The notes beneath the pieces are model-generated. The model was not told where the DNA came from, made no database searches, and worked only from the letters and a program-made list of their open reading frames with translations. Of a stretch of DNA of 61,521 nucleotides, positions 20,232 through 30,087 are shown piece by piece. The stretch is from positions 1 through 61,521 of IMG/VR virus record IMGVR_UViG_3300020045_002604. One strand, given 5' to 3'. The position numbers and the translations under genes were made by a program. The stretch comes from a virus. Taxonomy: Duplodnaviria > Caudoviricetes. Numbering within the stretch: position 1 is the first letter of the stretch; the number at the start of each line of letters is the position of its first letter.

Positions 20232-20305
20232 TGGCACAGTCTGTAGGAGTCGAACCCACGCTTCTCGGGTTGGAGCCGAGCGTGCTACCGTAACACTTAG
20301 ACCAT
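20232..20305 (-). tRNA. tRNA-Trp(CCA)
   Basis: CTCGG-CT CCA AC-CCGAG; T-loop TTCGACT; CCA end. Confidence 0.9.
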
Positions 20306-20309
20306 ATAG

Positions 20310-20420
20310 CTGAGGACAGTTTTAAGAGTTAACTCGCGTTGCTCTGAGCGTAGGGTGTACTCATCCTGTAGGCTTGTTAGTTGACCAGTAGCCTCACGCC
20401 GCTAGGGCGAAACTGTTTGA
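20310..20420 (-). ncRNA. Putative small structured RNA
   Basis: Closing stem ACAGTTT/AAACTGT with internal hairpins; upstream TGTGG-TATGAT promoter-like site (~20433-20443). Confidence 0.35.
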
Positions 20421-20445
20421 TGTTGTGATAACATCATACCACATT

Positions 20446-20643
20446 TTACAGCGGCGTGTCAACCCCCAGCTTGCCAGCGATCTGTTCCAGTAGCGCTACA
20501 GTGTGCAGTCCTAGCACCACCTGGGTGCTGAGCAGTACATTCTGTGCGGCCTCGCTATGCCCCTCAAGCTCTAGCTCTCGGCTGACGCGTAGACCTTCCT
20601 TAACAAGTTCGCCTAGGCTCTTGGTGTTTTCTGTGTCGGGCAT
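20446..20643 (-). CDS. Hypothetical protein
   Basis: Coupled to upstream gene (TAATG). Confidence 0.65.
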   Translation of the reverse strand: MPDTENTKSLGELVKEGLRVSRELELEGHSEAAQNVLLSTQVVLGLHTVALLEQIAGKLGVDTPL

Positions 20644-21548
20644 TAGCTTGCTTTCCTAGTGTCGAGCGCAGACTGTAGGGGCTTGTTGCCTCGTGACCAG
20701 CCTCCGCAGTTGTCGCACGAAAATAGTTCGTATTCCTGTACGAATGTGTATGTATTGGTGCCGCTCTTTGTGAGAGATTCGTGTGCGCAGTAAGGGCAGT
20801 CGCCACCTTCCGTGGAGAACATACCCATGTGGGGGACGTTCGTGAGCCACGGCAACAGTCGCACGTACAGCCGCTCTGTCAGCCGCACGTCGCCCTCGTT
20901 GTACTCGCGCATCTTGGCCCACGCCTCAGGGTCACCGCCCATGCAGTCGATCCATAGCTGGAACCCCGCGTGCTCAACCTTGGCGCCCACTCCGGTAGCC
21001 TGGGCGATGTAGTCCAGCTTCCTGCTGGGTAGATCGAACCTGGCTCGGTTGGTCTTGAACAGGTCGATACTACGGAACGGCTTTGGCGGGGCCAGCCCGG
21101 CCTGTAGGAACTCGTTGTTGAGTCGCTTAACATCGTAGCGATCACCGTTGTAGGTGATCACAACGTCGGCCCGGCTGAGCAGGTCGTGGGCCGCCCTGAC
21201 CGTCGCCGCGTGTCCGTTGTCGTAATCGCTGTAGTACAGCACTTCGTCATCGCCTAGCCACTTGGCGGCGAAGCACATCATGCCGCCTGGGTCGATCAGC
21301 ATACTGTCTGGAATCCAGTCGGCTTTCTTCGACCACACGTACGCCTGCATGGGCTTGGACTCAATGTCGATTGTCAGAACCCGCGCGCGTGGTAGCACAA
21401 TATCGGCGTGGGCGGTAGGGGCGGCGTCGCCGTAATAAAGCTTACGATACTTGTTCACTGAGGTCTTACCGGTCAGGAGGATACGAGCGGCTTCGCGGCT
21501 ACTCACGTGCGCCGTAGCGTCGATTTGTTCTCGTGTTAGAAATGCCAT
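20643..21548 (-). CDS. DnaQ/RNase H-like (DEDDy) exonuclease with N-terminal HTH and C-terminal Zn ribbon
   Basis: IDIE, YNGDRYD, SRKLDYIA, YNEGDV; CPYC...CDNCG. Confidence 0.85.
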   Translation of the reverse strand: MAFLTREQIDATAHVSSREAARILLTGKTSVNKYRKLYYGDAAPTAHADIVLPRARVLTIDIESKPMQAYVWSKKADWIPDSMLIDPGGMMCFAAKWLGDDEVLYYSDYDNGHAATVRAAHDLLSRADVVITYNGDRYDVKRLNNEFLQAGLAPPKPFRSIDLFKTNRARFDLPSRKLDYIAQATGVGAKVEHAGFQLWIDCMGGDPEAWAKMREYNEGDVRLTERLYVRLLPWLTNVPHMGMFSTEGGDCPYCAHESLTKSGTNTYTFVQEYELFSCDNCGGWSRGNKPLQSALDTRKAS

Positions 21549-21554
21549 TCTACC

Positions 21555-21583
21555 ATCCTAGCATACGAAAAAGGCCCCGTCAA
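21555..21583 (-). promoter_or_regulatory. SigA-type promoter, leaderless; overlaps NrdH terminator hairpin
   Basis: TTGACG-17-TAGGAT, ATG 6 nt downstream. Confidence 0.75.
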
Positions 21584-21596
21584 GGGGCCTTAATCA

Positions 21597-21818
21597 TTAA
21601 AGAGCTGTGATCAGATCAGGTCTAAAACCTGACCAATGTGAGCCATCCGGCGCCACAACCACAGGAGCTTGCAAGTACCCAAGCTCTTTCGTGATGAAAT
21701 CGTATGCCTCACGGTTCTCCGAGATATCGGTGACGTTGTACGGCGTGCCTTGCTTATCTAGCACCTTGTATGTCATTTCGCACTGCACACATGAGGGCTT
21801 TGAAAAAACCTGTACCAA
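21597..21818 (-). CDS. nrdH: NrdH-like glutaredoxin
   Basis: KPSCVQC, GYLQAPVV, HWSGFRPD; likely TTG start after RBS GAAAGG. Confidence 0.9.
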   Translation of the reverse strand: MVQVFSKPSCVQCEMTYKVLDKQGTPYNVTDISENREAYDFITKELGYLQAPVVVAPDGSHWSGFRPDLITAL

Positions 21819-21918
21819 GCTTATTAACCTTTCGATGGGATGACGAATCCCCGGCTCAGATTGTGTCATGAACCGGGGATTCGTTGGGGCTATGTACCTA
21901 TATCAGTATAGCATAGAT

Positions 21919-21997
21919 CGGTAGCCACGGGAGGATTTGAACCTACCTGTCTTCGACGTATCAGATCGACGCTTATACCGGAATTAGCATCGTGGCT
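21919..21997 (-). tRNA. tRNA-Ile(GAT)
   Basis: TCGAT-CT GAT AC-GTCGA; acceptor AGCCACG/CGTGGCT. Confidence 0.8.
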
Positions 21998-21998
21998 A

Positions 21999-22067
21999 TG
22001 GTCCCCCTGCCAGGATTCGAACCCGGACCCGTAGGCTTAGAACACCCTAGGTGATCCATCCAGAGGG
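21999..22067 (-). tRNA. tRNA-Arg(TCT), truncated D-arm
   Basis: T-arm CCGGG TTCGAAT CCTGG, loop GT TCT AA, CCA end; D region only ~11 nt. Confidence 0.6.
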
Positions 22068-22074
22068 ACAGTAT

Positions 22075-22455
22075 TTAGTTGGCGTAATCGAACGGAGAGA
22101 CAGTACCGTCTAGGTAGTGAATGTAACCCTCGTGATCCTTGGCCCACTTGTAGTCACCGTAGACGCTCTCGCGCTCAAGCGGCGTGATCACTCCGTCTAC
22201 GATCAGACGACCATAGACGCTGGGCGACTCCGATCCCGAGCCCCACGCCTCCGACCAACGAGAGCCACAGCACTCGCAGTCACGGCTGTAGTTACCGTCC
22301 TCGTCGTAGCTGTCGAAGTACAGACCGATGCGCTCGGCGCGGTCATTGGCCTCTTCGGCGCTGCCTGCTTCGATGATGACGTAGGGACCGATACCGTCAA
22401 CAGCGTCTTCGAGGAAGAAGCCGCCGCTGTTGTTCTGGTGGAACTCATAAAACAT
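22075..22455 (-). CDS. Hypothetical phage protein
   Basis: FYEFHQNNSGG...DCECCGSRW; RBS AGGAG. Confidence 0.75.
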   Translation of the reverse strand: MFYEFHQNNSGGFFLEDAVDGIGPYVIIEAGSAEEANDRAERIGLYFDSYDEDGNYSRDCECCGSRWSEAWGSGSESPSVYGRLIVDGVITPLERESVYGDYKWAKDHEGYIHYLDGTVSPFDYAN

Positions 22456-22486
22456 GATCTACTCCTAGTTATTTTGTACGGTTAAG

Positions 22487-22560
22487 TGGACGTACCTACT
22501 GGATTCGAACCAGCGTGCGCGGGGTTGCAATCCGCTACCTAGCCTCTCGGTCAAGGTACG
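22487..22560 (-). tRNA. tRNA-Cys(GCA)
   Basis: Loop TT GCA AC; U73 and CCA. Confidence 0.9.
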
Positions 22561-22561
22561 G

Positions 22562-22636
22562 TGGTGGGTGCGGCAGGTAACGATCCCGCCTCCCAAGATT
22601 AAAAGTCAAGTGCTAATCCTTCTCAGCTACACACCC
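22562..22636 (-). tRNA. tRNA-Lys(TTT)
   Basis: Loop CT TTT AA; T-loop ATCGTTA; CCA. Confidence 0.85.
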
Positions 22637-22645
22637 AAAAATAAA

Positions 22646-22719
22646 TGGCTCACAGACCTGGATTCGAACCAAGGCGAACTGATTCAGAGTCAGTCATGCT
22701 ACCGTTACATCATCCGTGA
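22646..22719 (-). tRNA. tRNA-Gln(CTG)
   Basis: ACTGA-CT CTG AA-TCAGT; CCA. Confidence 0.92.
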
Positions 22720-22720
22720 G

Positions 22721-22792
22721 CGCCCCATCCGGGATTCGAACCCAGAATTTCACCTTCGTAGGGTGTTAGTTTATCCGTTAGCTTAACGGGGC
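22721..22792 (-). tRNA. tRNA-Arg(ACG)
   Basis: CACC-CT ACG AA-GGTG. Confidence 0.9.
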
Positions 22793-23074
22793 CTAATCCG
22801 CACAGTGTTCACAGCCTGCGCAACGCTGTTTATGTGTTCTGTCTCTGTGACAATTAGCGCAAACTAAGTCACACTTCATGCTTTCTTTTAGCTGTCTTTC
22901 GTAGGAAATAGACGAGCCTTCCCCTAGCCCAAACGCTTTCTGTGTCGGGTCGCGGTGATCGAAGTCCATTTGCCAGGGTTTGCCCGCCAGTACACAATCT
23001 ACGCAAGCGCTACCATGCGCCTCGATTAATTTTACCTTTGTGCGTTGTCTCCACGCAGTTACCGGGTGCGTCAT
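22793..23074 (-). CDS. HNH endonuclease
   Basis: CVDC...MDFDH...CDLVCANCHRDRT. Confidence 0.85.
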   Translation of the reverse strand: MTHPVTAWRQRTKVKLIEAHGSACVDCVLAGKPWQMDFDHRDPTQKAFGLGEGSSISYERQLKESMKCDLVCANCHRDRTHKQRCAGCEHCAD

Positions 23075-23075
23075 G

Positions 23076-23146
23076 CTCTCCCCCTTGGAATCGAACCAAG
23101 CCCTGATGGTTAACGGCCACCTGCTCCGCCTTGGAGCTGAAGGAGA
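23076..23146 (-). tRNA. tRNA-Asn(GTT)
   Basis: GGTGG-CC GTT AA-CCATC. Confidence 0.85.
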
Positions 23147-23224
23147 ATAACCTCACACACTACCGCCGTGCTACTGAGGAATAAGTGAGGGTTCCTACTC
23201 TCTTCGTGTCACCCACAACCACTG

Positions 23225-23291
23225 TCCTCCCACTAGGAATCGAACCTAGCCTGCAACCGTGTAAAGGTCGCGCCCGCCCAACGACAGGAGG
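23225..23291 (-). tRNA. tRNA-Val(TAC), truncated D-arm
   Basis: GCGACC-TT TAC AC-GGTTGC; T-arm CTAGG TTCGATT CCTAG; D region ~11 nt. Confidence 0.7.
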
Positions 23292-23366
23292 TTACATAGT
23301 GGCCGATACTACCGGTTACCATTTCGGGATACGCTGTACCTGTTATCTAATGGAAGGCCACCACAG

Positions 23367-23440
23367 TGCCGACGACAGGAATCGAACCCGCATACTCCAT
23401 ATTACAAGTATGGTGCTAAACCAGTATTAGCTACATCGGC
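23367..23440 (-). tRNA. tRNA-Thr(TGT)
   Basis: CCATA-CT TGT AA-TATGG. Confidence 0.92.
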
Positions 23441-23453
23441 GTGTATTTAATTG

Positions 23454-23723
23454 TTACTTTCTACGCTTAGGATCATACAGCACTTCATCGAAGATTGCAA
23501 GGTGCTTCTTGTTGAAGCTGTACATTTGCATTCCCTGTCGCGCCGTCCACCCGTACCCTGGCAGGTTGTCCGTCAGCGTTGTGCGGGGTATGCCCGTTGT
23601 GTAGGAGACTTCGCGGTAGCTCGCGCCGTCCTCAAGCAAGGACTTGGCGAACTCCCAACCCTTATCTGTGTAGTTGTGTGTCTTCGGACGACCCGTAGGG
23701 CGACCTGTCTTTACGTATCCCAT
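23454..23723 (-). CDS. HTH DNA-binding protein
   Basis: GRPTGRPK arm plus LLEDGASYREVSYTTGIPRTTL helix-turn-helix. Confidence 0.75.
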   Translation of the reverse strand: MGYVKTGRPTGRPKTHNYTDKGWEFAKSLLEDGASYREVSYTTGIPRTTLTDNLPGYGWTARQGMQMYSFNKKHLAIFDEVLYDPKRRK

Positions 23724-23724
23724 G

Positions 23725-23798
23725 TGCGGCACGGGAGATTCGAACTCCCACTAAATCGTTGGCAACGACTTGTGCTAACCGTTAAACACTAGTACCAC
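23725..23798 (-). tRNA. tRNA-Gly(GCC)
   Basis: AGTCG-TT GCC AA-CGATT. Confidence 0.9.
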
Positions 23799-23799
23799 G

Positions 23800-23874
23800 T
23801 GCGGTAACAGAGACTCGAACTCTGCCTTTCAGTTTGGAAGACTGACGTGCTAATACCACTAACACTACTACCAC
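23800..23874 (-). tRNA. tRNA-Gly(TCC)
   Basis: TCAGT-CT TCC AA-ACTGA. Confidence 0.9.
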
Positions 23875-23875
23875 G

Positions 23876-23947
23876 TGCCCCCGGTAGGTAACGATCCCAC
23901 GTCTACAGGTTAAGAGCCAGTTGCTAATCCATCTCAGCTACGGAGGC
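23876..23947 (-). tRNA. tRNA-Lys(CTT)
   Basis: Loop CT CTT AA; T-loop ATCGTTA. Confidence 0.85.
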
Positions 23948-24027
23948 ATGTGTGGGCCGACCAACTCCCACCGAGTATTTCTACCCTGCGTTTTCCTCCT
24001 AATAACCGAGGTTTGAGGTCGAGTGCG

Positions 24028-24112
24028 CGGAAAGTGGGAGAGTCGAACTCCATACCTTGCGGTACGATCTGTTTAGCAAACAGGCCAGGGCACCAACCCT
24101 GTTCTACCTTCC
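24028..24112 (-). tRNA. tRNA-Ser(GCT)
   Basis: CTGT-TT GCT AA-ACAG; long variable arm TACC GCAA GGTA; G73. Confidence 0.88.
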
Positions 24113-24207
24113 AAGTTTTGAGTACCCGCGCGTGGACAATAAAGTGCTCGCTTCTTCGCCCGTAGTCTAACGACTGTGCGCGGGTACCCAAGTTTTTAGT
24201 TATTAAG

Positions 24208-24290
24208 CGGCGAGTGCAGGATTCGAACCCGCACGACCCAGGAGGTCATCAAGCTTTTCAAGAGCCATAAGTACGCCAATACGACTCGCC
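24208..24290 (-). tRNA. tRNA-Ser(TGA)
   Basis: Loop CT TGA AA; long variable arm; short D-arm. Confidence 0.75.
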
Positions 24291-24355
24291 AAATGGTTAG
24301 AGGCCCGATACTTGTAAGTACCGGGCCTCTGCCAACCAACACAGAAAGGAGGAAT

Positions 24356-24418
24356 TTAACCCAGCACAAAGGCCCCGACGTTATTGCCGGTGCGCTTCGA
24401 CTGGATCGTGATGAACAT
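24356..24418 (-). CDS. Putative leaderless 20-aa peptide MFITIQSKRTGNNVGAFVLG
   Basis: ATG 6 nt after consensus -10. Confidence 0.45.
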   Translation of the reverse strand: MFITIQSKRTGNNVGAFVLG

Positions 24419-24424
24419 ACTGTT

Positions 24425-24453
24425 ATTCTAGCACAACTTTGACGGTTTGTCAA
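24425..24453 (-). promoter_or_regulatory. SigA-type promoter
   Basis: TTGACA-17-TAGAAT with TG extension. Confidence 0.85.
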
Positions 24454-24463
24454 CAGTTAACTG

Positions 24464-24544
24464 TAGCCCCGGAGAGATTTGAACTCTCAATCCTTTCGGC
24501 ACCAGTTTCTAAGACTGGCGTGTATACCGTTCCACCACGGAGCC
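24464..24544 (-). tRNA. tRNA-Leu(TAG)
   Basis: CCAGT-CT TAG AA-ACTGG; variable arm CC GAAA GG. Confidence 0.92.
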
Positions 24545-24545
24545 G

Positions 24546-24619
24546 TACGCGGGGAGGGATTCGAACCCTCACACCCAAGCTTTTGAGGCCCGGAGGTATA
24601 CCGTTCCCATCACCCGCGC
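24546..24619 (-). tRNA. tRNA-Leu(CAA), short variable loop
   Basis: CGGGC-CT CAA AA-GCTTG; Leu-type D loop GGTATAC; A73. Confidence 0.8.
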
Positions 24620-24630
24620 GTATTAAATTG

Positions 24631-24792
24631 TTAGGAGGGTAGCCCCTCCGTCATCACACGGAACTTCGTGCGACGCTTGCGACCCAGCCACTTGGCACCC
24701 ATCTGGGCTGTCTCCCGCGCGCTGTACAAGAACGGTGATCCGTCCCGCATGAGTGCAGTCTGGCGAGTCTTGATGTCGATGAGATAGTACAT
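24631..24792 (-). CDS. Small basic hypothetical protein
   Basis: MYYLIDIK... after purine-rich RBS. Confidence 0.55.
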   Translation of the reverse strand: MYYLIDIKTRQTALMRDGSPFLYSARETAQMGAKWLGRKRRTKFRVMTEGLPS

Positions 24793-24889
24793 GGTACTCT
24801 CTTTCTTGTTGGCGAGTGGTTTCGGCTGGTAACGATCCAGCAACTCCGGGACTTCAATCCAGCGTGTATCCATTAACACTTCAAAACCG

Positions 24890-24964
24890 TGGTGGGAGCA
24901 CTTAGGGTCGAACTAAGCTACCGTTGTTTTACAGACAAGTTGCGCACCCCGCGCACTTACTCCC
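24890..24964 (-). tRNA. tRNA-Tyr(GTA), short variable loop
   Basis: TTGT-CT GTA AA-ACAA; acceptor GGGAGTA/TGCTCCC, A73, CCA. Confidence 0.8.
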
Positions 24965-24965
24965 G

Positions 24966-25038
24966 TACTCCCAAGGGGATTCGAACCCCTGCCACCCGGT
25001 GTGAAAAACCGGCATCCTAACCACTAGACCATGAGAGC
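24966..25038 (-). tRNA. tRNA-Glu(TTC)
   Basis: CCGGT-TT TTC AC-ACCGG. Confidence 0.92.
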
Positions 25039-25170
25039 GTACAACCGGTAGCATACTCTTCTGGCTTACGATCCAGTACCCTTTGCTATGAAATGGAAGA
25101 ACGCCCTCGGTTGTCCGACGTTCCGACTCTGAGTGGTATACCTTGCGGCAGTGACGATACTCAGCCCGCG

Positions 25171-25241
25171 TACTCCGTAGGGGTTTCGATCCCCTGACAA
25201 TAGGTTGAGAACCTAACGTGTTGCCATTACACCAACGGAGC
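25171..25241 (-). tRNA. tRNA-Glu(CTC)
   Basis: TAGG-TT CTC AA-CCTA; T-loop ATCGAAA. Confidence 0.85.
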
Positions 25242-25297
25242 ATAAGAATGAAAACCCTGCAGCTTTAGGCCCGTTTCAGGGGCGATCTTCATTCTAG

Positions 25298-25369
25298 CGA
25301 ACCTAACGGGTTACGATCCCGCTTCCTTCCGGCTGACAACCGGGCGCTTATCCATTCAGCTTTAGGTCC
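25298..25369 (-). tRNA. tRNA-Asp(GTC)
   Basis: CCGG-TT GTC AG-CCGG; T-loop ATCGTAA. Confidence 0.85.
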
Positions 25370-25373
25370 AAGA

Positions 25374-25460
25374 TGCAGTTGTCGGAGAATTTCACGTCCG
25401 AATCGAAGCGGTTCTACCGGCAGGGCCGGGTCCGTGACGCTCTTATTGAGCTACAACTGC
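25374..25460 (-). ncRNA. Rearranged tRNA-like RNA
   Basis: Acceptor GCAGTTG/CAACTGC-A and D-arm GCTC/GAGC intact; anticodon and T regions non-canonical. Confidence 0.6.
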
Positions 25461-25463
25461 AAG

Positions 25464-25541
25464 TGGGGTGAACGACGGGAATCGAACCCGCGACGGACTG
25501 ACTCACAATCAGGCTGAACTGCCAGCAGTTCCCCGTTCAAC
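25464..25541 (-). tRNA. tRNA-His(GTG)
   Basis: CTGA-TT GTG AG-TCAG; G-1, C73, CCA; 6-bp D stem. Confidence 0.85.
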
Positions 25542-25542
25542 G

Positions 25543-25617
25543 TCTAGGTGGCAGGATTCGAACCTGCGGCCTTAAGCTTCCAAAGCAAACACTCTGACCA
25601 AACTGAGCTACACCTAG
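25543..25617 (-). tRNA. tRNA-Pro(TGG)
   Basis: Loop TT TGG AA; C1-G72, A73. Confidence 0.88.
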
Positions 25618-25765
25618 TTATGTGGATACCCTAACAGTTAGCACCGTATGTACGGCCTGTGTCTTGGGATTGTGACTCACGCCCCCGCAAGGTTTCTGGT
25701 CTGGTATCCTCTGCCTCCCACCTCGCAAACCTTTTTCGGTGGGCTGTGCTATTTAGTTTTTAAAG

Positions 25766-25841
25766 TTGCCGGGGAGGGATTCGAACCCTCGATTTCGAGA
25801 TTATGAGACTCGCGTCGTAGACCTAGCTGGACCACCCGACA
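25766..25841 (-). tRNA. tRNA-Met(CAT)
   Basis: CGAG(T)-CT CAT AA-(T)CTCG; initiator vs elongator vs Ile2 not resolved. Confidence 0.85.
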
Positions 25842-25844
25842 ATA

Positions 25845-26583
25845 CCGTGTAGGGGCTGAGAGTACACCCTACAATGGCAAGCTTTCGTTGGATTATTTGT
25901 TCCCAACTTCTCCACAGTATCCCTACTGTACTTACCGCGCCTGGTGGATTTTACGGGGCACCACCCCAGAATCAGAAAGCTACTCCACAGGTTTGACTTC
26001 GTAAAGGGACCGCTAAACCCCTAAACTGCACTACTCCCTTATGAACTACCTTGGCCTTGCGAGCTTCCAGTAGCCTCAGTTCCCGTGTTAGGGCTGAGGA
26101 TTAAGACGCTTTCACTCTCTGACGGAACAGGCTTTCGCTTGTATTTTGAAATACCATTTTCAATATGGAGCACCCTATAACCCAGGTGCGGGGCATGACA
26201 GAGGACGTGCTGTTCCATGAAGTTCCGTAGGCTTTTGACCCACAGTATGCTTCACGCCCTCATGCTTTCGTTGGCGACTACTCACACTCTCCGCTACTTT
26301 CCGAACTGCCGTCCGTGCCGTAGTTTCATGGTGACCGCCCTAGTTTGCCGACTCGGACTTATCACCCTGCGTTGAATACTCAGGCTTACTAGATGCCAGT
26401 CTATGCCTAGACTCGCTCCACCGGTTGGCCCTGCGATTTACACTTCGCTCACCTGAGTAGTGACCGTTACGATCACTTAATCATTGCATTGCGTAGTTTA
26501 CCCTTGCGGGCGGAAGCTTTGTCGAACTTCCTTTCACCAACTCACGTTGGCTTATGGGCTACGCCCCAACACATTGCTGTGTC
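25845..26583 (-). ncRNA. Large structured ncRNA, GOLLD-like
   Basis: ~740 nt with no ORF >=60 aa, between tRNA-Ala and tRNA-Met; many GNRA-capped hairpins and AGUA/GAA motifs; 3' hairpin TGTAGGG-TGTACTCTCAG-CCCCTACA; size and context fit GOLLD. Confidence 0.7.
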
Positions 26584-26584
26584 G

Positions 26585-26657
26585 TGGACCCACGGGGACT
26601 TGAACCCCGCGCCTTCTGCTTGCAAAACAGATGCTCTACCGGATGAGCTATAGGCCC
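26585..26657 (-). tRNA. tRNA-Ala(TGC)
   Basis: TCTGT-TT TGC AA-GCAGA; G3:U70. Confidence 0.93.
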
Positions 26658-26672
26658 GTATTTACTTTGTAC

Positions 26673-26701
26673 ATATTAGCAGAGGCCGGATACTTTGTCA
26701 A
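26673..26701 (-). promoter_or_regulatory. SigA-type promoter of tRNA/ncRNA array
   Basis: TTGACA-17-TAATAT just upstream of tRNA-Ala. Confidence 0.85.
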
Positions 26702-26735
26702 GTACCCGGCCTCTACTTAGATGTAGTAGATGGTT

Positions 26736-26795
26736 TTAGGTACACGAATCAGCGGCATCCTCGAATGCCGGGTAGAGTTCGTGTGTCTTAGTCAT
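26736..26795 (-). CDS. Putative leaderless 19-aa peptide MTKTHELYPAFEDAADSCT
   Basis: ATG 7 nt after consensus -10. Confidence 0.4.
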   Translation of the reverse strand: MTKTHELYPAFEDAADSCT

Positions 26796-26802
26796 GTGTA
26801 CT

Positions 26803-26831
26803 ATCATAGCACAACTTTCTGTGGTTGTCAA
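26803..26831 (-). promoter_or_regulatory. SigA-type promoter
   Basis: TTGACA-17-TATGAT with TG extension. Confidence 0.85.
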
Positions 26832-26885
26832 GAGATTGGCTGGCTGGTTGTTTTTAACGATTAAATATGTTACGATTGTAACACT

Positions 26886-27122
26886 ATGTCAGCTAATCCT
26901 AACAATGTATACTGGGCAACCATTCGCAAACTCGACGCTAAGTACGACTACCTAGAGGTAACACAAACTTCAAAAAGTCGGTGGAGCGTTACCATTGACG
27001 GTCACGACTACTCCGTGCGGACAAACTCCACCGACTTTTGGACTATCCTTGCCGCCGCCTTCAAGCTTCGTGAGAAGCGTCTAGCTAAGCTAGCTCTACA
27101 GGCCACTCAAAATCTAGAGTAA
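26886..27122 (+). CDS. Hypothetical protein (isolated + strand gene)
   Basis: Own -10 TATGT-TACGAT at 26866-26876. Confidence 0.6.
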   Translation: MSANPNNVYWATIRKLDAKYDYLEVTQTSKSRWSVTIDGHDYSVRTNSTDFWTILAAAFKLREKRLAKLALQATQNLE

Positions 27123-27754: not shown

Positions 27755-28504
27755 TTAACTGAGGTCGGACCAGGAGGTCCCGATGCTGTAGTCTGATAGG
27801 AACGGCACGGCGTCGCCGAGAACCATCCTGCCTGTCTTGCGTAGTTGAAGTCCTACATAGCGACCGATTGTGTCGGCGTTATCGGACGGACCCTCGATCA
27901 TCATGGCGTCATGGACCAGGTTAAACAGCTTGTAGCCTGCATCCTTGAGGGACGGGTTGATACGGATCGCGGTTGCCAGCAGGATATCACTTGACGTACT
28001 CTGCGGCAAGAACGACAGAGCTTCGCGCTCGATGTTCCTGTAATTTTTAGTTGTTACAACTTCCGACTGGAAGCGGCGCCCGAACGGATTGATCAGCAGG
28101 TCACGGCGGCTGGGTATTCTCGCCGCCGCCTTAACGTCTTCGCGCCACTTAGCAAAGCCTACCGCAACAGCCATGTAGTTGTCAATGATCCTCTGGGCTT
28201 CCCAGGTCTTCATGCCTAGGGACTGCGCGATAGCTGGTGCCTGGCGACCGAACGCTAGACCGTACTGAACCGCCTTAACCTTCGTCCGGGCCTCTTTGTG
28301 GAGGACCGGACATTTCTCTTTGTAGACTTCGATTGACCCGAACTCGTGGACGATCTGCGGGAACGCTACAGGCATAAGGTGACTGTCAAAAAAGTCTCCC
28401 GCCCCTTCCTGTAGCGCCCCGATCATCCACTCGTCGTTAGACAGCCGCGCCATGACCCGGAGTTCGGCCTGCGACAAGTCGATGTTAATCATCACCGTCT
28501 TCAT
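27755..28504 (-). CDS. polA: Family A DNA polymerase, C-terminal part (motifs A, B, C)
   Basis: DLSQAELRVMA, RTKVKAVQYGLAFG, NLVHDAM; own RBS GGAGGA before ATG 28504. Confidence 0.92.
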   Translation of the reverse strand: MKTVMINIDLSQAELRVMARLSNDEWMIGALQEGAGDFFDSHLMPVAFPQIVHEFGSIEVYKEKCPVLHKEARTKVKAVQYGLAFGRQAPAIAQSLGMKTWEAQRIIDNYMAVAVGFAKWREDVKAAARIPSRRDLLINPFGRRFQSEVVTTKNYRNIEREALSFLPQSTSSDILLATAIRINPSLKDAGYKLFNLVHDAMMIEGPSDNADTIGRYVGLQLRKTGRMVLGDAVPFLSDYSIGTSWSDLS

Positions 28505-28673
28505 CTGGTTCCTCCCCCTCATCGTCTGGCGGATTGGGCGTGAACCCCATCTGCGTTCGCGTTTCTAGGGTGTGCGTTTCGGGTTCCTCTACTTCGAACC
28601 CGCCGTGTATGATCGTGCACAATACCTCACCGGCATCGTCACCTACATACTTGATAACCGTAAAGCCCTTCAC
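28485..28673 (-). CDS. Small acidic protein between the polymerase halves
   Basis: GTG start after RBS GAGGA; 62 aa with acidic tail. Confidence 0.6.
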   Translation of the reverse strand: MKGFTVIKYVGDDAGEVLCTIIHGGFEVEEPETHTLETRTQMGFTPNPPDDEGEEPDEDGDD

Positions 28674-28674
28674 T

Positions 28675-30087
28675 CTATTCCTCGATCCGCACAATTTCTC
28701 GAACGCGCTTGTCTCGCGGCATGTTCTGGGCGTTGGGCTTCGTGCTGGACAGGCGCCCTGTGGACGTACCGTGCACCAGGAACGTAGGGCGCACCCTTGC
28801 CTGCGTATCGCCGTCGAGCTTGCGGGCCTGGGCGCCCCAGCCCTCGGCGTAGGTGCTGTTCTGCTTGGCCAGCCCCCGGTACTCTAGGAGTACGTGACAC
28901 CAGTCCGCGACAGCGGCCTCGGGGTTGTTTTCGATAAGCTCTGCCAGCGTGGCCTCGTTAGTCGAGAACACCACCCTGCCGAACCGGTCAGAAAGTGCTC
29001 GCTTTACCTGGACGGGACTGTTAGGGTTGAACTTAACATCACCCGCACCCTCCCTAAGCTGGTCGAGCATCAAGTCCATCGTCTGTATATTGGCACTACG
29101 CAGACTCTCTGCCGCCTGGAAGCTAAACGGGATACCGTTCATTTCCACTTCGAGCAGAAGCTCCGCGAGCGCCAACTCAAACTCAAACGCTTTCTGGTTC
29201 TCTTCGTCCGCTTCGATCTGCGGTGCGAACAGTTCCCACAACTTGTAGGTCCAGTACACGTCCCACCCGTTGTAAGTAATCAGAGCACCCCAAGGGATAA
29301 GCTCGTAATGACCTCCACCCTTGGTGTGCTTGTTGATACCCTCTTCCCAGTCCGGTGCGCCGTAGTATCTACGTGCGAGAATCTTGAGTCCATGCTCACC
29401 CGCCGCGTGGTTGAGTACGTGATGGGCCAGCATCGTGTCGAACCATACGTGCAACTCAACACCCAGTACTCTGTTCAGCACGCGGGTATCGAATTTGCCG
29501 TTGTGGTAGATGCCCTTGGTGAACTTAGGTAGCGCCTCTTTGAGCATGTCCAACATGCTCTCGCTAAGGGGCTGGCTACTACCGTCTGTTGCAGGGTTGT
29601 GATATACCACGGGGTAGCACCCATCCTGATACAGCGCGACGGAAATGACCTCTACCTCTTCCGCCGTGTGTGACCTTCCCAGGTTACCGTTTGTTTCAAT
29701 ATCGATAGCCGTGGGCTTGTAGAAGTCGAAGTCGAATAGCGCGGGGTGCGCGGCTCCACTAGCATAACCAGCGGGCTTGATGTGCTCCGGTGGTGTATGC
29801 ACACCATTGAAGTACAACTGCAACGACGACGTGAGCACCGTAGCCGCATTAGCTTTGGCCATGATCTGGGCGATGGAGTACGTGTAGATATACTCGTTGT
29901 CGAAGACCGCCCGTTCTGGGGCGCGCGAGCCGAACACAAGGACACGACGAGGCGACGCGTCGCTGGGCTTAAGCTCTACGAACTTAACGTCGTCGTACCC
30001 GTTAGCTTCCTTGATGTTTTTTAGGACTTCAATCGCTCGGGGAGTCGGCTCCTGCTCTGAGTAAATCCAGCAGATTCGGTGTTCCAT
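28675..30087 (-). CDS. polA: Family A DNA polymerase, N-terminal part (3'-5' exonuclease + thumb)
   Basis: IDIET, HNGKFD, DTMLAH, YNGWDV; FNPNSPVQ; GTSTGRLSSTKPNAQNMPR. Confidence 0.92.
   Translation of the reverse strand: MEHRICWIYSEQEPTPRAIEVLKNIKEANGYDDVKFVELKPSDASPRRVLVFGSRAPERAVFDNEYIYTYSIAQIMAKANAATVLTSSLQLYFNGVHTPPEHIKPAGYASGAAHPALFDFDFYKPTAIDIETNGNLGRSHTAEEVEVISVALYQDGCYPVVYHNPATDGSSQPLSESMLDMLKEALPKFTKGIYHNGKFDTRVLNRVLGVELHVWFDTMLAHHVLNHAAGEHGLKILARRYYGAPDWEEGINKHTKGGGHYELIPWGALITYNGWDVYWTYKLWELFAPQIEADEENQKAFEFELALAELLLEVEMNGIPFSFQAAESLRSANIQTMDLMLDQLREGAGDVKFNPNSPVQVKRALSDRFGRVVFSTNEATLAELIENNPEAAVADWCHVLLEYRGLAKQNSTYAEGWGAQARKLDGDTQARVRPTFLVHGTSTGRLSSTKPNAQNMPRDKRVREIVRIEE

Follow-up and report, generated by a model that had tools for sequence, protein, structure and literature searches.

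A rearranged tRNA-like unit in the tRNA/GOLLD array of an uncultured phage: a candidate pseudo-tRNA skipped in contigs of close relatives

In phage T4, the tRNA cluster also encodes small stable RNAs ('species 1 and 2', rnaC/rnaD), shared by the T4-like phages, which are transcribed and processed together with the tRNAs and have tRNA-like ends and no known function. Among other tRNA-like molecules, the 3′ tRNA-like structure (TLS) of plant RNA viruses has an acceptor arm built by a pseudoknot, T-armless mitochondrial tRNAs keep a normal anticodon arm, and allo-tRNAs keep a normal 7-nt T-loop (a term that a search of the allo-tRNA paper did not find). The present work deals with an 87-nt tRNA-like element located on the minus strand at 25374..25460 of a phage genome, within an array of tRNA genes that also contains a GOLLD RNA. 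The window, i.e. the whole stretch of DNA analyzed, is the 61,521-bp IMG/VR record IMGVR_UViG_3300020045_002604, a complete virus record with direct terminal repeats. Concerning the closest described systems, tRNA arrays that move horizontally among phages and mycobacteria carry tRNA pseudogenes and fragments; for instance, a Mycobacterium '32 tRNA cluster' with a GOLLD RNA was predicted to include a pseudo-tRNA (PMC6582537). Allo-tRNAs, of the 8/4 and 9/3 types, possess an anticodon arm and a long variable arm (V-arm); some were proposed to be regulatory RNAs or pseudogenes, and 8/4 tRNA-Ser/His occur in phage tRNA clusters (PMC5389517). PMC5966550 makes no mention of pseudo, GOLLD or non-canonical.

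The element keeps an acceptor stem, a discriminator A and a D-stem, and has no 7-nt anticodon loop. On balance, it is probably a tRNA-derived, non-decoding and dispensable extra unit, i.e. a pseudo-tRNA, made by internal rearrangement. It was rated as such because it is redundant within its array, is an orphan in the collections searched, is skipped in close relatives and displays an ambiguous core fold.

Anatomy and folding of the 87-nt element

Positions 1–87 of the element correspond to window positions 25460 down to 25374. The acceptor stem is formed by GCAGTTG (positions 1–7; 25454..25460) and CAACTGC (positions 80–86; 25375..25381), which make a perfect 7-bp helix followed by the discriminator A at 25374, with T8-A79 as a possible eighth pair. 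CCA is not encoded, and the trailer is TCTT at 25370-25373. The D-arm (25439..25451) consists of the 4-bp stem GCTC/GAGC and the 5-nt loop AATAA. A first-pass annotation, made from the letters of the window, had described a perfect acceptor stem with an A discriminator, which was confirmed on the minus strand, and a normal D-arm, of which the stem stood and the loop did not: unlike the D-loops of the other array tRNAs compared, AATAA is devoid of G18G19, so the D-arm is not normal.

At the anticodon position, TCACG (24–28; 25433..25437) has its partner CGTGA (65–69; 25392..25396) at a distance of exactly 36 nt. These 36 nt hold the GC hairpin CCGGC-CCT-GCCGG (32–44; 25417..25429), whose triloop CCT is no anticodon loop, and TTCGATT (54–60; 25401..25407), a displaced T-loop-like motif which lies 5′ of the T-position helix and not inside it. 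The latter helix is formed by TCGGA (60–64; 25397..25401) and TCCGA (75–79; 25382..25386), the second strand abutting the 3′ strand of the acceptor stem. Its loop contains 10 nt, CGTGAAATTC, the first five of which are the CGTGA that pairs with TCACG. Beyond the hairpin and TTCGATT, the order is TCGGA, CGTGA, AATTC, TCCGA and then the acceptor 3′ strand, and the strands of the two 5-bp helices interleave. All this agrees with the first-pass description, which had placed a CCGG hairpin and a displaced TTCGATT within TCACG...CGTGA, and a TCGGA/TCCGA stem with a 10-nt loop at the T-arm position.

The element occupies exactly one unit slot, with spacers of 3–4 nt, between its upstream neighbour tRNA-His(gtg) (25464..25540, minus strand; ARAGORN), from which it is separated by CTT, and its downstream neighbour tRNA-Asp(gtc) (25297..25369, minus strand; ARAGORN and Rfam), from which it is separated by TCTT. 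A coding sequence was considered and rejected, since just four ORFs, of 27–32 aa, overlap the element.

The chance occurrence of the tRNA-like features was estimated by shuffling the inner 57 nt of the element 200,000 times at the mononucleotide level. A perfect 5-bp helix was obtained at the anticodon-stem position in 5.6% of the shuffles, at the T-stem position in 5.7%, and at both in 0.45%, while both helices together with a TTCGA/TTCAA motif were obtained in 0.023%. The combination of features is not due to chance.

Concerning the fold, the minimum free energy was -30.8 kcal/mol (z = -2.8), and 2 of 200 dinucleotide shuffles folded as well. The nested ensemble comprised 216 structures within 3 kcal/mol of the optimum, and its only robust parts were the acceptor stem (pair probability 1.0), the D-stem (0.98) and the GC hairpin (0.93–0.98), with T8-A79 as an optional pair (0.85). 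The core helices were weak, with pair probabilities about 0.2 (0.19–0.22) for TCACG/CGTGA and of 0.10–0.38 for TCGGA/TCCGA. The nested fold with the former helix (-30.0 kcal/mol) and the T-arm-like fold with the latter (-27.4 kcal/mol) were close in energy. Since the two helices interleave, both could coexist as an H-type pseudoknot, as had been proposed in the first-pass annotation; the pairing of CGTGA with TCACG is possible on paper, but it is drawn for one sequence only and its nested pair probabilities are those just given.

tRNA complement of the array and family tests of the element

The tRNA genes of the window all lie on the minus strand, at 20232-26657. With default settings ARAGORN found 21 of them in the array, including tRNA-Phe(gaa) at 24816-24888, which was also matched by the Rfam tRNA model with 35.7 bits (E 1.2e-4; gathering score 29). 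When the threshold was set at 95%, four further genes were called: tRNA-Lys(ttt) at 22562-22636, tRNA-Asn(gtt) at 23075-23146, tRNA-Ser(gct) at 24027-24112 and tRNA-Tyr(gta) at 24890-24964. This makes 25 tRNAs, which serve all 20 amino acids. The earlier statement that the array covers 19 amino acids and not Phe was thus wrong, and the Phe ancestry attributed speculatively to the element is groundless, as the array has its own tRNA-Phe(GAA). With the 20 amino acids covered, the element is a 26th, extra unit and no missing isoacceptor; Phe, Tyr and Asn were all rejected for that role upon finding the three of them in the array.

The tRNA-Tyr and tRNA-Asn genes are borderline. Neither was detected by ARAGORN with its default settings or by Rfam at E ≤ 1, and tRNA-Tyr searched alone against Rfam gave nothing even at E ≤ 10. 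In the threshold calls of ARAGORN, cloverleaves with proper anticodon loops were drawn for both. The tRNA-Tyr(gta) has a short variable region; bacterial tRNA-Tyr is usually of the long-arm type.

The element itself received no minus-strand call from ARAGORN at the default, 95, 90 or 85% thresholds, nor under seven relaxed, intron or mitochondrial settings (-i, -mt, -m, -ps60 to -ps80), and at 70% and 60% only spurious plus-strand calls overlapped it. From these runs, an intron-containing, mitochondrial-type or low-score tRNA on the minus strand was rejected. No match to the Rfam tRNA clan was obtained at E ≤ 1 in a 9-kb search or at E ≤ 10 with the element alone, which in Rfam 15 gave three matches only, all to unrelated families (E 4.2–5.4; ≤10.7 bits), and no match to other curated families such as Y RNA-like, tmRNA or mascRNA. 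No detector accepts the element because it has no 7-nt anticodon loop, its T-position loop is of 10 nt and without motif, and TTCGATT lies outside the helix.

When compared feature by feature with a canonical tRNA, the element displays the 7-bp acceptor stem with a discriminator base. In place of an anticodon arm with a 5-bp stem, a 7-nt loop, U33 and a purine at 37, TCACG/CGTGA closes 36 nt; in place of a T-arm with a 7-nt TTCRANY loop, there is a helix at the right place that closes the 10-nt CGTGAAATTC. Altogether the element fails four of the five defining features tested and is not a member of the tRNA family. The D-loop without G18G19, together with the T-loop motif outside the T-arm, suggests that the tRNA elbow is probably missing. 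Neither is the element part of GOLLD, from the match of which it is separated by tRNA-Met, a 147-nt spacer RNA, tRNA-Pro and tRNA-His. On the other hand, it shows what is expected of a tRNA pseudogene: recognisable tRNA parts in a tRNA context with the decoding parts lost, and a lack of conservation, as it is skipped in relatives (with the direct joint in two of them being inferred, see below).

It could be thought that the element is a genuine decoding tRNA of unprecedented shape, for instance a suppressor, missed by the detectors. Further tRNAs of the array are divergent too, and an 8-bp acceptor stem with a 4-bp adjacent helix might be drawn for the element, since pairing of T8 with A79 leaves four pairs in the latter, a drawing made on a single sequence. 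Phage tRNA clusters do contain 8/4 non-canonical tRNAs (PMC5389517). Nevertheless, there is no 7-nt Y-U-NNN-R loop anywhere in the element, its only robust hairpin has a 3-nt loop, its T-position helix closes 10 nt, and a decoder would join an array in which every amino acid is already served. So, a decoding function is highly improbable.

Close relatives, homologue searches and origin of the element

Seven of the eight public sequencing runs listed hold small parts of 24000-27000, with a largest word share of 0.11, and none of them is an RNA run. The contigs of four runs were compared: X1 and X2, which belong to one study, X5, which belongs to another, and X3. In three of the four, the stretch of the element is skipped and the contig of a relative joins tRNA-Asp towards tRNA-His. 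X1 and X2 contribute one contig each, in which the 147 letters of 24892-25038 show 3 differences, and over the 214 letters of 24207-24420 the contig from X2 shows 4; to judge from these counts, their source is a very close relative of this phage. In both, 25368 is joined to 25460, with 91 letters skipped and 4 letters fitting both sides. In the X5 contig, 25362 is joined to 25460 with just 6 other letters between, which replace the letters 25363-25368 of the tRNA-Asp acceptor strand. The edges of the 91-nt difference are marked by a direct repeat, CAAG, with its first copy at 25369..25372 and its second at 25460..25463 (plus strand). Joints that skip 91 nt with such a repeat indicate that the relatives represented in X1, X2 and X5 would run tRNA-His, CTT, tRNA-Asp, to which the window would add exactly one unit, made up of the 87-nt element and TCTT. 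Relatives with a normal tRNA at this place, of which the element would be a one-off decayed copy, were not seen: at the joint, the relatives compared show neither the element nor a normal tRNA. The X3 contig is different, as 24895-25541 is replaced there by 837 other letters.

The element is single-copy in the genome. When it was aligned locally to 24 tRNAs or tRNA-like units of the array, the best result was an exact match of 10 nt to tRNA-Arg(ACG), followed by 11 of 12 nt in tRNA-Pro. The former match spans the 3′ strand of the anticodon stem, the variable loop and the start of the T-stem, and is a weak similarity, of a positional nature only. With best local matches of 10–12 nt among the 24 units, a recent duplicate or chimera of array tRNAs was rejected.

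Outside the genome, four exact sub-patterns of the element gave 0 matches in IMG/VR viral contigs, metagenome contigs and one genome per prokaryote species. A blastn search against 50,697 phage records returned 18 of them at chance level, each covering ≤31% of the element, with a best E of 0.06. A covariance model built on the single sequence, a kind of model with little reach, found only itself in 14 sources (231,854 bases), among them the GOLLD-bearing array of Mycobacterium phage Bongo. So, the check by homologues and covariation advised in the first-pass annotation yielded no homologue in the viral, metagenome, prokaryote genome or phage collections searched, and hence no covariation.

The neighbourhood of the element was also used as query. 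The C-terminal DNA-polymerase piece gave two loci in viral contigs, including L002 with 76% identity. This relative shares tRNA-Ala, tRNA-Met and the next spacer with the window, and its contig stops short of the element site; it was also the sole match in a scan with a conserved-spacer pattern. The exonuclease-subunit query gave nine more distant loci, none of them with a comparable array, and an alignment query in metagenome contigs gave one remote locus with 24% identity.

The clean 91-nt difference bounded by a 4-nt direct repeat, between sequences that are 98% identical nearby, and the lack of a duplicate among the 24 array units compared, could also be explained if a small mobile or recombined 91-nt module had been inserted at the His-Asp junction. 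The acceptor stem would then serve as its 8-bp terminal inverted repeat, and CAAG would be the 4-bp duplication of the target. This is very unlikely. A microhomology deletion in the relatives would leave the same 4-nt repeat, and CTT followed by G is merely the usual array spacer plus the start of a tRNA. Besides, the module would be present in one copy in its genome and in none in the other collections searched, and there is no transposase and no known mechanism for it.

An assembly artefact in the virus record is scarcely credible. It would agree with the contigs of three of the four runs, which are without the element, and with the fact that none of the contigs listed shows it. However, a chimeric join would not yield boundaries exact to the unit together with a D-arm and a terminal stem of 8 perfect pairs, an assembler could not be misled by a repeat of 4 nt, and the depths of X3 may fit a contig running across the element.

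Taken as a pseudo-tRNA, which is the favoured reading, the element would have arisen as a by-product when a single tRNA unit was rearranged internally, its gain or loss would involve the 91 nt as a whole, and the interleaved strands around the 36-nt core would be what appear to be the former anticodon stem and T-stem. Promoter-like sites just upstream of tRNA-Ala (26831-26803 and 26701-26673, minus strand) suggest that the element is probably contained in a shared array precursor, in which it would be co-transcribed with tRNA-Ala, GOLLD, tRNA-Met, the 147-nt RNA, tRNA-Pro, tRNA-His and the units from tRNA-Asp onward. RNase P and the CCA-adding enzyme accept minihelices formed by an acceptor stem and a T-stem. 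The acceptor stem and the abutting TCGGA/TCCGA helix could form a 12-bp minihelix stack, with which the element would probably be excised by RNase P and 3′-end processing enzymes, and perhaps be CCA-tailed. The product would be a small stable RNA unable to read a codon.

Several points weigh against its being a mere pseudo-tRNA. All four stems are perfect, and the unit boundaries coincide exactly with the ends of the acceptor stem. This is unlike slow decay by point mutation, which means that either the rearrangement is recent or the stems are constrained. Phage genomes are compact and tend to shed junk. The failure of the detectors is weak evidence in this array, where other tRNAs (Tyr and Asn) also score poorly. 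Concerning the relatives, the direct joint in X1 and X2 was deduced from the 4 shared letters plus contig-length arithmetic, and the contigs show that an element-free form exists, not that the element-bearing form is absent. In X3, the depths (6.4 and 8.34) and the loose ends (25330 and 25493) may fit a further contig across the element, in which case the element would be present in another sample. Finally, transcription and processing of the element are inferred only, from the features mentioned above.

The main rival explanation is that the element is a functional, non-decoding tRNA-like RNA, processed and CCA-tailed, acting as a regulator or else, as a decoy, soaking up some host factor able to read tRNAs, for example a tRNA-targeting defence toxin which recognises acceptor ends or the tRNA body. 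It is a possibility of some substance, though a doubtful one. The perfect acceptor stem, the D-stem, the two perfect 5-bp core helices and the unit-exact boundaries are consistent with it, and an H-type pseudoknot of the interleaved helices, predicted from the letters, could stack on the acceptor helix. The array contains other non-coding RNAs, namely GOLLD (210.5 bits) and the 147-nt RNA (four compensatory pairs), and the full 20-amino-acid set suits a phage whose tRNAs are under attack. Phage tRNAs are reported to counter tRNA-cleaving defences (PMC11464382, PMC11555353), which is context and not evidence. Against a function, there is no homologue in the collections searched and hence no covariation, the contigs of close relatives skip the element, no single core fold dominates among the nested structures, the elbow read by many tRNA-binding proteins is probably missing, and no partner or target is known.

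The first-pass annotation had gone in this direction by considering the element as a tRNA scaffold repurposed as a mimic or decoy. The stems, the T-loop motif and the slot support tRNA ancestry of the scaffold, while for the mimic or decoy no positive evidence was found. In its most elaborate version, the mimic would be an RNA kept for a purpose, in which the acceptor helix is stacked on an H-type pseudoknot that replaces the anticodon and T arms, and would serve as an accessory counter-defence sponge. Excised and CCA-tailed like its neighbours, it would offer a tRNA 3′ end without a decodable body in only some members of the lineage. Such a complete picture is improbable.

Array surroundings and comparison with known systems

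The primase, a tail protein and the DNA polymerase pieces of the window match phage families. Among cultured phages, the nearest to the primase are Arthrobacter, Gordonia and Microbacterium phages, and since the amino-acid identity is only ~33%, the source is taken to be a phage that is uncultured and probably actinobacterial. Its family-A DNA polymerase is a split one, composed of an exonuclease subunit (20643-21548) and two polymerase pieces (27755-28522 and 28675-30087), all on the minus strand. The gene of the former is separated from the latter two by the whole tRNA/GOLLD array, which spans about 6 kb.

The GOLLD RNA (RF02032) was matched at 25853-26262 on the minus strand, inside the tRNA array, with 210.5 bits and an E of 5.9e-59 in Rfam. 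The 321 nt upstream of the match (26263-26583) may correspond to the variable 5′ half of GOLLD. In L002, the distance from tRNA-Ala to tRNA-Met is just 196 nt, which indicates that GOLLD is absent there.

The 147-nt spacer RNA occupies the interval between tRNA-Met and tRNA-Pro (25618-25764, minus strand) and has a counterpart at L002:8363-8510. Its identity to L002, about 88%, is above the conservation of tRNA-Met itself. RNAalifold on the two sequences (window and L002) gave 28 pairs, and in 4 of these both bases have changed in a compensatory manner. The spacer is also covered by contigs of runs X1, X2, X3 and X5, and has no Rfam match. This interval probably encodes a structured RNA, not described before, which accompanies the array.

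Another unusual tRNA-like unit is found at 22003-22067 (minus strand). Its acceptor stem and T-arm are good and CCA is encoded, but the D region is stunted and the anticodon arm is poor. Its sole Rfam match is mascRNA-menRNA (28.3 bits, E 0.019), and ARAGORN calls it only at thresholds ≤90%, as Arg(tct) or as an over-long Pro. In another five units of the array, i.e. both tRNA-Lys, tRNA-Phe, tRNA-Glu-ctc and tRNA-Asp (22562-22636, 23875-23947, 24816-24888, 25170-25241 and 25297-25369, minus strand), the usual TTCGAAT-type T-loop is replaced by ATCGTTA, ATCGTAA or ATCGAAA.

Concerning the remaining intervals, two longer 'spacers' on the minus strand, 23441-23723 and 24620-24815, start with or contain ATG and apparently code for one small protein each, with lengths near 90 and 50 aa (a 92-aa ORF runs at 23454-23732). 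Four other inter-tRNA spacers (25242-25296, 23292-23365, 24113-24206 and 25039-25169, minus strand) fold into units closed by long terminal stems. Debris of tRNA-Asp was located at two places: its 5′ end is repeated over 18 nt at 25255-25272, and its T-arm over 21 nt at 25063-25083. The stem-closed spacers, two of which have such tRNA-Asp-like fragments, represent either remains of tRNAs or additional small RNAs. When compared with the X1/X2 relative, segments of the array show 98% identity, while adjoining spacers fail to align at 80%. Taken together with the debris, the stem-closed spacers and the GOLLD-free L002, this patchy identity means that the array is a mosaic in rapid flux, with units gained, lost and broken.

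As it stands, the element matters little, since it merely adds to the non-canonical units of phage tRNA arrays. Its first description had to be corrected mainly in two respects: the array is complete and serves all 20 amino acids, and the element is an orphan skipped by close relatives. It also provides a clean example of how whole tRNA units are gained or lost in phage arrays, with unit-exact boundaries and a 4-nt microhomology, and it illustrates that several units of such arrays escape tRNA detectors. If the RNA turned out to be stable, to carry CCA and to benefit the phage, it would represent a novel type of tRNA mimic encoded by phages, and would bear on the interplay of phage tRNAs with tRNA-targeting defences.

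When the element is placed among the known systems, the small stable RNAs of T4 would be the nearest analogue as regards biogenesis, with the difference that the element is an orphan and the T4 RNAs are conserved. With the TLS and the T-armless tRNAs it shares tRNA mimicry and a non-cloverleaf core, in which a 10-nt linker could replace the T-arm if TCACG/CGTGA forms; unlike in the TLS, its acceptor stem is an ordinary helix. Like the 8/4 tRNAs, it belongs to a phage tRNA cluster. On its single sequence, a 12-bp acceptor branch might be drawn as 8 + 4, with T8-A79 as the eighth pair. Unlike an allo-tRNA, it carries a 10-nt loop on the T-position helix and has neither an anticodon loop nor a V-arm; since the anticodon arm and the V-arm are missing, it is not an allo-tRNA or 8/4 tRNA. 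As for the pseudo-tRNAs of GOLLD-bearing clusters, no homologue of the element was found, and it lies outside the GOLLD match, about 390 nt downstream. Its stems are perfect and its strands re-ordered, without decay by point mutation, which sets it apart from those pseudo-tRNAs (PMC6582537). The points in common with them are a dense array beside GOLLD, the possession of tRNA parts, a non-decoding character and a variable presence. It seems reasonable to interpret that the element works most like the pseudo-tRNAs of GOLLD-bearing tRNA clusters (PMC6582537).

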